Of a stretch of 32,259 nucleotides of DNA, positions 15,032-16,101 are shown one piece after another. This DNA is from Candidatus Faecenecus gallistercoris (GTDB taxonomy: Bacteria; Bacillota_I; Bacilli_A; RF39; UBA660), in NCBI GenBank assembly GCA_018713065.1, contig DVFU01000107.1, positions 1-32,259 on the forward strand, given 5' to 3'. The notes beneath the pieces are model-generated. The model was not told the DNA's origin, made no database searches, and saw nothing but the letters and a program-made list of their open reading frames with translations. A program made the position numbers and the translations under genes. The stretch's first letter is position 1, and the number at the start of each line of letters is the position of its first letter.

Positions 15032-15068
15032 TGAGCCTAAGATACGCGTGTCGCCTTAGGCCTTTTTT
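15032..15068 (+). ncRNA. Hairpin RNA element, copy 2 (antisense to abi, overlapping its stop codon); terminator-like
   Basis: TGAGCCTAAG-ATACGCGTGTCGC-CTTAGGC-CTTTTTT. Same length and loop consensus as the 16027-16062 element. Confidence 0.6.
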
Positions 15069-16006
15069 ATTTTTACCCAATTGTCAGGAAACCCCATAGC
15101 ATTAAATATAGTCTGATAACTAATATGAGTGATTTTTTGACTTAAGCTTCTCATTCTTCCATCTATTTTGTTACACATAGTATTAAAATCACTTTCTGGT
15201 AGTAAAATTTTTAAAATTATAATTAACGAAAACAAATCATTTTTTCCATTAACATACCTTCCATTAATAACATTAATGTTCAATTTTTCATGAATATTAG
15301 TATTAGGGATATCCTGATTACATTTAGAACTATATAGTCTATCATCATGTGCACATAAATTCCTATAAAATGCTAAAGTTTTAATATATTGATTTAAATC
15401 CGCCTCTTTTACATCCCAATGTTGAGATACTTTAATACGTACAGATTGATCCATCAAACTATAAAATTGACTTAATCTTCCCAAAGTAATAGCATTAACT
15501 AAAACCCATAATGGAACAAAACCATAATTTAAAATATAATGCTTAATATAATTTTTCTTAGACATAGATTTAGATATATCAGACTGTAAATTAGTCAACA
15601 AAGTTTGTATCTGCTCAACCCGTTCTTCGTATTTTTTGGATGAACAATTACTGCCTTTCAAAGTTTCAAAATTATCCATTTTTAAATAATTATCATTCCC
15701 ATACTTTTCTGAAAAATGATAAGCAATCAAAGATCGCAATATATTTTCTACCTTTAGTATCTGTTTAAATATAATATTTTTTAATTGTCTATCAAAATCA
15801 TATAAATAATATATTTCTTCAAAAGTAGTTCCTGTAATAAAATTATCTTTTGTACCTGGAGTGATAAATAAATCTTTATAACCGTTTATAATATTATAGT
15901 AATTATCTTCCTTTAATTTTTCTAAAACAAATTGTTCATCATCTATTATTAATCCTCTCGTTTTTAATAATTCAATTTGTTCTTGGTAAGTTTTAAATTC
16001 TTTCAT
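15056..16006 (-). CDS. Abi family (Abi_2, AbiD/AbiF-like) HEPN abortive-infection protein
   Basis: KEFKTYQEQIELLKTRGL, NYYNIINGYK, LYDFDRQLK, VPLWV, HEPN Rx4H motif RNLCAH, MGFP..W end. GGAG SD precedes ATG at 16006. Confidence 0.92.
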   Translation of the reverse strand: MKEFKTYQEQIELLKTRGLIIDDEQFVLEKLKEDNYYNIINGYKDLFITPGTKDNFITGTTFEEIYYLYDFDRQLKNIIFKQILKVENILRSLIAYHFSEKYGNDNYLKMDNFETLKGSNCSSKKYEERVEQIQTLLTNLQSDISKSMSKKNYIKHYILNYGFVPLWVLVNAITLGRLSQFYSLMDQSVRIKVSQHWDVKEADLNQYIKTLAFYRNLCAHDDRLYSSKCNQDIPNTNIHEKLNINVINGRYVNGKNDLFSLIIILKILLPESDFNTMCNKIDGRMRSLSQKITHISYQTIFNAMGFPDNWVKIKKA

Positions 16007-16026
16007 AACATCAACTCCAATATAAT

Positions 16027-16062
16027 AAAAAGGCTCTGGCCCACACGGGTAACCAAAGCTCA
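16027..16062 (-). ncRNA. Hairpin RNA element, copy 1, in the abi 5' leader (candidate RNA antitoxin/attenuator)
   Basis: Minus strand reads TGAGCTTTGG-TTACCCGTGTGGG-CCAGAGC-CTTTTT, between the promoter and the abi SD. Confidence 0.65.
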
Positions 16063-16073
16063 ATCACAACTTA

Positions 16074-16101
16074 AGTATATCATGACTTTTGCAAAAATCA
16101 A
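16074..16101 (-). promoter_or_regulatory. Sigma-A-type promoter for the hairpin-abi transcript
   Basis: TTGATT-16 nt-TATACT with extended -10 TG on the minus strand. Confidence 0.6.

Follow-up and report, generated by a model that had tools for sequence, protein, structure and literature searches.

Why would the gene of a putative abortive-infection RNase be enclosed by two inward-facing copies of one and the same RNA hairpin? The question arises from a 32,259-nucleotide (nt) stretch of DNA, referred to as the window in the following, that spans positions 1 to 32,259 of contig DVFU01000107.1 in assembly GCA_018713065.1 of Candidatus Faecenecus gallistercoris. Here a gene of the Abi_2 family, designated abi, is preceded on its own strand by one hairpin (copy 1) and met at its 3' end by a second one (copy 2) on the opposite strand. 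RNases of the AbiF/AbiD type and their non-coding RNAs (ncRNAs) have, according to the accounts available to us, recently been recognized as type III toxin-antitoxin systems and likely ancestors of Cas13, and these accounts describe a single RNA motif, RF03085, and a single layout with the RNA upstream of the toxin gene. With a probability of roughly 60%, we take the cassette to be an AbiF/AbiD-like type III toxin-antitoxin or abortive-infection system in which two separately transcribed, inward-facing antitoxin hairpins flank the toxin gene.

The abi gene is an open reading frame (ORF) on the minus strand at positions 15056-16006, with an ATG at 16006 and a TAA stop codon at 15058-15056, and its translation yields a protein of 316 amino acids. 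This protein matches the Pfam family Abi_2 (PF07751) with an E value of 4.6e-44, the domain extending over its full length, the PADLOC model for AbiD with E 5.5e-66 over residues 1-314, and the protein of PDB entry 8vz6_A ('Abi family protein') with E 3.1e-17 over residues 4-311. The R-x4-H motif of HEPN RNases is present as RNLCAH and is unchanged in all 11 aligned members of the clade discussed below. By these similarities the product of abi is a HEPN RNase toxin of the Abi_2 or AbiD-AbiF group, with putative activity.

Copy 1 is located upstream of abi on the minus strand, with its core at 16061-16032 and a U-tract of five residues at 16031-16027, and copy 2 converges on the gene from beyond its 3' end on the plus strand, with its core at 15033-15062 and a U-tract of six residues at 15063-15068. 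A first-pass annotation of the window had described these positions, the U-tracts and a gapless alignment of the two 30-nt cores with 19 identical residues, all of which is confirmed in the sequence, as is its placement of copy 2 in antisense to the last codons of abi, with the stop codon inside the hairpin. The pattern of compensatory differences was retraced by hand: the 11 differences comprise three compensatory pairs and one G-U to A-U exchange in the 7-base-pair (bp) stem; in the inner stem C-G is replaced by G-C, and two further changes affect unpaired positions. With R1, a covariance model built from relatives, the two copies are detected at 16024-16070 (60.6 bits, E 4.3e-10) and 15024-15070 (57.9 bits, E 2.0e-9), respectively. 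Their fold energies of -14.1 and -11.6 kcal/mol are ordinary (z about -2), and the window alone provides a modest signal, with a local alignment of leader and downstream regions scoring 16 in inverted versus 9 in direct orientation (z 3.6). The pair is absent among the 25 longest of 46 inverted repeats that a generic repeat finder reports for the window, and a simple terminator scan flags neither hairpin because its loop limit excludes bulged stems. The genome carrying the window comprises 1.28 Mb on 133 contigs with 35% G+C and belongs to a Bacilli family with small genomes. The shared core TAC[CG]CGTGT[CG]G occurs in it at exactly two sites, copies 1 and 2, and a search with R1 at E <= 1 returned these two only. 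The hairpin is no genome-wide terminator repeat, a possibility that the first-pass annotation had raised and that is excluded by these searches.

The bracketing arrangement recurs in relatives. When 401 genomes of the family were searched at E <= 1e-80 for Abi of the window type, the gene was found in 12 of them with 48-76% identity, and both copies are present in the same places and on the same strands in all 12 complete genome loci. The common layout consists of a near-consensus promoter, the hairpin, its U-tract and the ATG, with the inverted hairpin over the stop codon at the 3' end and a -10-like box beyond. In 80 metagenome loci R1 gave 68 hits: at a protein identity of at least 46% (36 loci) both copies were found in 26 cases and the leader copy only in six, the remaining four being cut by contig ends or holding a truncated gene, while below 46% (44 loci) the downstream copy was never detected and weak leader hits appeared in six. 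Among 80 Abi_2 loci on viral contigs, both copies were present only in the closest one, at 55% the sole locus above 46% identity, and five loci at 26-42% identity showed weak R1 hits, in the leader only. A model-free test by local alignment gave z >= 4 for inverted similarity in 22 of the 29 distinct loci that reach 46% identity, versus one of 68 below, and this single locus is a clade member at 45.9%. Note that the test replaced an earlier ungapped comparison of 24-nt windows that was low in power, with the true case L062 scoring 18 versus 16. As the downstream copy is confined to loci of about 46% identity and above, the bracket is a trait of one clade and not of Abi_2 genes in general. In 151 genomes of the family, finally, R1 produced 15 hits in seven genomes, ten of them beside abi genes and five of them orphans.

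In the hairpin consensus of the clade, an outer stem of 8 bp is separated by a 5'-side bulge of 2 nt from an inner stem of 2 bp, which is capped by a 5-nt loop resembling CGUGU, and the U-tract follows; RNAalifold, run unaided on 25 aligned hairpins, arrived at the same outer stem, bulge, inner stem and loop. With the ten-pair structure imposed on these 25 sequences, 92.4% of all cells were paired, as opposed to 77.8 +/- 1.5% after shuffling and 24-56% with the pairing partners slid, and changes on both sides were observed in eight of the ten pairs. For 44 distinct hit sequences the values rise to 96.6% paired cells and double changes in ten of ten pairs, in an alignment that was fitted to model R1. 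Much of the covariation among the 25 hairpins reflects a difference between leader stems (CUUCGG/CCGAAG) and downstream stems (CCUAAG/CUUAGG), the latter being obliged to encode the stop codon of abi. The loop reads CGUGU in 15 of 25 leader rows and five of 19 downstream rows and otherwise differs at one to three of its five positions, which bears out the predicted conservation of the loop near homologous abi genes. The trinucleotide TAC, proposed to be invariant, is so in the subclade of the window only; in the clade as a whole the bulge varies between UA and AU, with conservation limited to the C behind it. Leader copies contain 24 G-U cells and no A-C cells, which fits the strand bearing the U-tract. 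As judged by the covariance model and the comparative alignments, the two hairpins represent a single RNA element that is conserved, covaries and goes with this clade of abi genes; the covariation between them had been noted in the first-pass annotation.

We further compared the two copies within each locus. Their apical similarity is 0.81, as opposed to 0.62 +/- 0.02 for permuted pairs, and none of 5000 permutations reached the observed value; one mis-registered locus of 24 was dropped from this test. Individual loci illustrate the effect: L035 has the inner stem UUC/GAA in both of its copies and is the only locus to do so, L036 has the loops UACGC and UAUGC in its two copies, and L148 has a shortened bulge in both. 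Judged from these sequences, the two copies of one locus evolve together. In the subclade of the window (L001, L032, L143, L145) the inner stem of copy 2 is swapped from C-G to G-C, such that 11 of 15 apical bases equal copy 1. Since this swap keeps the fold and lowers the identity, it is hairpin shape, loop and bulge that seem to matter rather than pairing between the copies. In L150 an additional hairpin-like copy with the loop CCCGUGUGG is located directly upstream of the downstream copy, and this locus may carry tandem hairpin copies on its 3' side. The abi homolog in L040 (G157:C23) has one in-frame TGA at codon 222 with both hairpins intact, and is either a pseudogene or the result of a sequencing error.

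Both copies are found in a promoter context. The putative leader promoter at 16074-16101 on the minus strand consists of TTGATT, a 16-nt spacer and the extended -10 element TG-n-TATACT, with nine of 12 matches to the consensus and the TG present. Promoter, hairpin and U-tract are retained in 13 of 13 leader copies, the promoters scoring 10-12 of 12 in 11 of these cases, and the end of the -10 box is invariably 10-12 nt away from the hairpin core. A ribosome-binding site, GGAG at 16015-16018 on the minus strand, precedes the ATG of abi by 8 nt. In six of 11 intact relatives, however, only 0-9 nt separate the leader U-tract from the ATG and hold no Shine-Dalgarno sequence, and the G157 copy has the same layout (L034, L037, L038, L039, L040, L041 and L042 in total). 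With a start codon abutting the U-tract and no ribosome-binding site, a protein bound to the hairpin could also block translation. From its sequence, copy 1 doubles as an intrinsic terminator or attenuator before abi. For copy 2, candidate -10 boxes on the plus strand are CATACT/TACTAT at 15021-15028, 6 nt before the core, and TATAAT at 15001-15006; there is no good -35 element. Two of these, TATAAT and TACTAT (15023-15028), had been pointed out by the first-pass annotation, and the box is conserved: in 27 of 30 distinct contexts a -10 box with at least five of six matches ends 4-12 nt before the core of the downstream copy, compared to 26% in AT-rich background, a count to which no probability is attached as the loci are related and not independent. 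The boxes of the relatives are of the type [C/A/T]ATAAT. The U-tract of copy 2 at the same time codes for the last lysine residues of abi.

Among described systems, AbiF from Clostridioides difficile (AbiF_Cd, prophage phi027) is the closest in organization. As far as available accounts of Saunier et al. 2025 go, the protein is toxic and is neutralized in cis and in trans by RCd22, an upstream RNA of about 100 nt with two tandem RF03085 motifs, and a terminator before abiF stops most transcripts. According to the same accounts and to reviews, PbAbiF forms a homodimer with two bound ncRNAs, and its active site is blocked by a single-stranded bulge. The assertion that AbiF-type RNases can be neutralized by a cis-encoded ncRNA is thus upheld in this literature, with two RNAs bound in the solved dimer. 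Like AbiF_Cd/RCd22, the window has an Abi_2 HEPN toxin behind a sigma-A promoter, a short structured RNA and a terminator, with abi predicted to be expressed by read-through only, and both systems have two hairpin motifs. In the accounts of RCd22 the RNA neutralizes its toxin by direct binding, whereas the role of the hairpins is here predicted from sequence. RCd22 is further described as having two tandem motifs on the same strand and a separate terminator, while in the window a single upstream motif is the terminator itself and the second motif is located downstream, on the other strand and behind a candidate promoter of its own. The PbAbiF-AbiFr complex (PDB 8VZ6, Zilberzwige-Tal et al. 2025) contains a homologous protein (E 3.1e-17), and its reported stoichiometry of two ncRNAs per homodimer, with a bulge blocking the active site, fits two bulged hairpins per cassette; its ncRNA is, however, described as lying upstream of the gene, and the available accounts do not mention a convergent second gene. 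More generally, a convergent or downstream second copy was not described for AbiF or AbiD in the literature covered, the scope of which did not extend to the primary PbAbiF paper and its supplements.

The RNA itself is a different matter. RF03085 is also a short, two-tier hairpin upstream of Abi_2 genes, but as represented by phage phiC2 it consists of stems of 6 and 3 bp with a 1-nt bulge between them and an internal loop of 6 nt on the 3' side, while the window hairpin has the 8-bp stem, 2-nt 5' bulge, 2-bp stem, 5-nt loop and U-tract described above and differs in sequence. The comparison with this Rfam motif that the first-pass annotation had proposed yielded no link: RF03085 had no match in the window at 14300-16700 with E <= 10 and none in the whole genome, with phage phiC2 as a positive control at 37.6 bits, and 20 other Abi_2 loci likewise gave no match at E <= 0.05. 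A scan of 151 genomes of the class returned nothing either, although there the positive controls were silent too. Given the lack of a match and a bulge on the opposite side, homology of the RNAs is not established. The layout nonetheless corresponds to that of AbiF-type systems, in that the toxin gene shares its strand with a conserved structured RNA upstream, this RNA has a promoter in front of it, and the toxin gene is preceded by a terminator, here the hairpin itself. With ToxIN and AbiQ the cassette shares the order of promoter, antitoxin RNA, terminator and toxin gene that sets the ratio of antitoxin to toxin, but the toxin fold is unrelated, and ToxI consists of tandem repeats that are cut by the toxin. 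Such an array is absent here, and Tandem Repeats Finder reported low-scoring AT-rich rows only, with no array in the leader transcript. Compared to other Abi_2 genes from phages, the window Abi remains below 60% identity, and a plasmid search with the protein likewise gave matches below 60% identity only, with no lactococcal record among the matches listed.

In the mechanism that we propose, a near-consensus sigma-70 promoter would start transcription a few bases before copy 1, and the bulged hairpin with its U5-7 tract would end most leader transcripts, yielding an RNA of about 40-45 nt. The abi mRNA, with its start codon 0-25 nt behind the U-tract, would then arise by read-through only, by analogy to RCd22/abiF and ToxIN, so that antitoxin would be made in excess over toxin. 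Copy 2 would be transcribed toward abi from a weaker promoter located past the 3' end of the gene, with the transcript ending in the U-tract of the lysine codons. The Abi HEPN RNase, presumed to dimerize from its homology to 8VZ6, would bind two hairpins through the bulge and the CGUGU loop, whereby its active site would be blocked as in the AbiF dimer. Copy 2 would in this way supply antitoxin independently of toxin transcription, and might in addition damp abi by convergent transcription or antisense pairing. Upon shut-off of host transcription by a phage, the short RNAs would decay and the freed RNase would abort the infection, as expected from related systems. While the hairpins, their conservation, their covariation and their specificity are read directly from the genomes, we infer transcription, binding, neutralization and trigger.

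Naturally occurring variants of the cassette and solitary hairpins bear on its mobility. In L031, a near-identical relative and the thirteenth record of the locus, the counterpart of positions 14976-15922 is deleted: the promoter, copy 1 and 28 codons of abi are retained, and the remainder of the gene from codon 29, copy 2 and another 57 nt are missing. L031 was also the only locus returned when genome contigs were searched with the Abi protein alone. The joint 14975 to 15923 is found in contigs of all four chicken-gut runs examined (X16-X19). This deletion is not a precise excision, and no transposase is present. Short repeats, TAAAA and AATTGTT, are located near both of its ends. The orphan in G023 (L050) has a strong promoter and an intact hairpin before a decayed abi that reads ATG AAA TAA. 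G094 possesses a full cassette plus two orphans in prophages (L060:1459-1546 and L061:891-990, minus strand) that stand behind the lysis genes for a Dp-1 holin and an Amidase_2 endolysin, and in both of them an ordinary terminator is followed by an extended -10 box, TGGTATAAT, and then by the hairpin. These may be phage decoy antitoxins or remnants of a prophage-borne abi cassette. Two further orphans occur in G070, which has no abi of this clade: one (L058:1388-1434) follows a PemK/MazF-like gene at a distance of 228 nt and overlaps a convergent DUF968-like ORF at its stop codon, the other (L053:1501-1546) directly follows a Mn catalase gene. By their sequence context the orphans look like RNA genes rather than mere terminators. 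The cassette is found within about 400 nt of tRNA genes in five of the 12 genome loci (window, L032, L035, L041 and L042), the tRNAs being Gly-CCC, Gly-GCC with Cys, Ser, Glu, and Arg with Pro. As these contexts differ, the cassette seems to move as a unit.

The orphans admit a variation on the theme, in which the hairpin is a mobile, free-standing antitoxin gene that serves prophages as a decoy against the host Abi RNase, and the double bracket keeps the supply of antitoxin robust. Phages can escape ToxIN with antitoxin look-alikes, to which the prophage hairpins of G094 may be likened. We regard this idea as tentative and rather doubtful; if true, the bracket would guard against phage interference and against the loss of either antitoxin gene.

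A simpler explanation than two antitoxin RNAs would be that of insulating terminators, an attenuator before a toxic gene and a convergent terminator against antisense read-in, with one copied from the other and neither of them recognized by a protein. Both copies are indeed stem-loops with U-tracts, that of copy 2 also codes for lysines, orphans are found at the 3' ends of the Mn catalase gene, the DUF968-like ORF and small prophage ORFs, and some members of the clade live without copy 2. Conservation of loop and bulge down to 46% protein identity, with both co-changing within a locus, nevertheless makes this explanation unlikely, because the loops of ordinary terminators drift freely. Each copy moreover follows a -10 box within 4-12 nt, which makes little sense for an insulator, L060 and L061 already have an ordinary terminator before the unit of promoter and hairpin, and R1 finds no other such terminator in the genome. 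The location of copy 2 also suggests a type I-like mode of action in which it pairs with the 3' end of the abi mRNA and copy 1 does likewise, the likeness of the two being kept for RNA-RNA pairing. Copy 2 overlaps the last abi codons in antisense, is fully complementary to them by construction and has a conserved -10 box, and the apical likeness within a locus would also be expected from pairing of copy 1 with the mRNA; the toxin is not a small membrane peptide. The inner-stem swap of the subclade, however, preserves the fold of copy 2 at the expense of its match to copy 1, orphans persist where no abi mRNA exists (G070 and G023), and the AbiF RNAs known from the available accounts act by binding the protein, so that we hold an antisense mechanism to be improbable.

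The protein-bound hairpin might instead be a processed substrate, a sensor or a guide-like RNA, that is, a handle that serves activation or the choice of targets, and not an inhibitor. The available reviews report processing by AbiF of its own ncRNA and put the protein at the root of Cas13, and the hairpin is short and conserved like a repeat. Given that the copies are inverted and only two in number, that each RNA would end right behind its stem with no variable, spacer-like segment, and that there is no tandem array in the leader, we consider such a role quite unlikely, and the resemblance to a proto-direct-repeat that the first-pass annotation had contemplated receives no support. Chance likeness of two unrelated terminators might still account for the window taken by itself, where 19 of 30 identities between GC-clamped stems with T-runs are not extreme and the generic repeat finder ignores the pair, and terminal inverted repeats of a transposable element could be envisaged in the same way. 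The pair recurs in about 40 loci, however, there are only two copies per genome, no transposase is present, and the natural deletion is not a precise excision. Recurrence in relatives and the two-site specificity within the own genome contradict a chance resemblance, and the probability of either origin is close to negligible.

A number of observations weigh against the two-antitoxin cassette itself. Both hairpins are fully adequate as intrinsic terminators, and three orphans overlap the stop codons of unrelated convergent ORFs just as copy 2 overlaps that of abi. The -10 box of copy 2 in the window itself is weak, with four of six matches, and wobble pairs in the downstream copies are indecisive on the strand, with six G-U and six A-C cells over all pairs. 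All six A-C cells fall on the weak closing pair, and by eye the lower stems hold about three G-U and no A-C cells; the U-tract and the -10 box are therefore the main grounds for assigning copy 2 to its strand. Six of 32 informative metagenome loci (L157, L160 and L162-L165) have no recognizable copy 2, and the second copy is therefore dispensable; as far as these sequences go, it is lost or degenerated in some members of the clade. The hairpin is distinct from the Rfam abiF motif: its bulge is on the 5' side, the large internal loop of the motif on the 3' side. Two metatranscriptome runs hold about a tenth of the words sampled from the stretch, but their contigs represent the deletion allele only, lack strand and ends, and no hairpin RNA was observed in them, a result that speaks neither for nor against transcription of the hairpins. 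Taken together, the interpretation put forward in the first-pass annotation survives in part: the conserved, clade-specific element and the -10 box of copy 2 stand, whereas invariance of TAC does not, the comparison with RF03085 gave no match and the proto-repeat is not supported.

If the two-antitoxin reading is correct, the clade adds a second, unrelated-looking hairpin family to the RNAs of Abi systems, together with a compact design in which the antitoxin hairpin is the attenuating terminator itself, and a split arrangement in which the two RNAs of the dimer come from two convergent genes, one of them overlapping the stop codon of the toxin gene. At about 1.1 kb such a system would be useful for asking about the ratio of antitoxin to toxin, the RNA features that are read by the protein and the action of phage decoys, and it is of relevance for RNA antitoxins, for Abi systems and for the origin of Cas13.

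Other Abi_2 genes differ in their surroundings. Of 36 genomes sampled from the family, 34 have a different paralog with 36-42% identity (G000:C46:2526-3437 in the case at hand, loci L002-L030), and its 30 loci have a plain promoter with a ribosome-binding site and no hairpin, and are uninformative on the bracket. The gene closely 3' of this paralog encodes an N-terminus that looks hydrophobic by eye. The family-wide conservation of an 'abortive infection' paralog, given a genome size of about 1 Mb, points to a housekeeping role. Clades at 32-42% identity (L063, L064, L066, L067, L071, L122) possess a conserved leader hairpin-terminator of their own, about 30-70 nt before the ATG, that reads CUCCGG-UG-UCC-UUCG-GGC-CCGGGG followed by a U-run and has a similar two-tier shape; these loci have neither a downstream copy nor a match to RF03085. 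As 20 other Abi_2 loci are devoid of RF03085, many Abi_2 clades may carry partner RNAs that have not been described.

Within the window, a tRNA-Gly(CCC) gene at 16277-16204 on the minus strand lies upstream of abi on the same strand and is the sole match to Rfam at gathering scores. Between it and the abi promoter, an AT-rich 20-nt tandem repeat extends over 16105-16162, with 2-2.7 copies and 74-86% matches. Most sequencing runs that contain the stretch are chicken-gut metagenomes. The gene neighborhood of abi is not conserved in seven other genomes of the same genus. Neighbors at 8696-14320 and 20505-22116 include a HerA/DUF87-like ATPase with a weak match to the PADLOC model mad8, a UDG-family protein, an AraC/GyrI-like regulator, an HD-domain YfbR-like nucleotidase and two adjoining dCTP-deaminase-like genes, and the region around abi may be a variable defense region.

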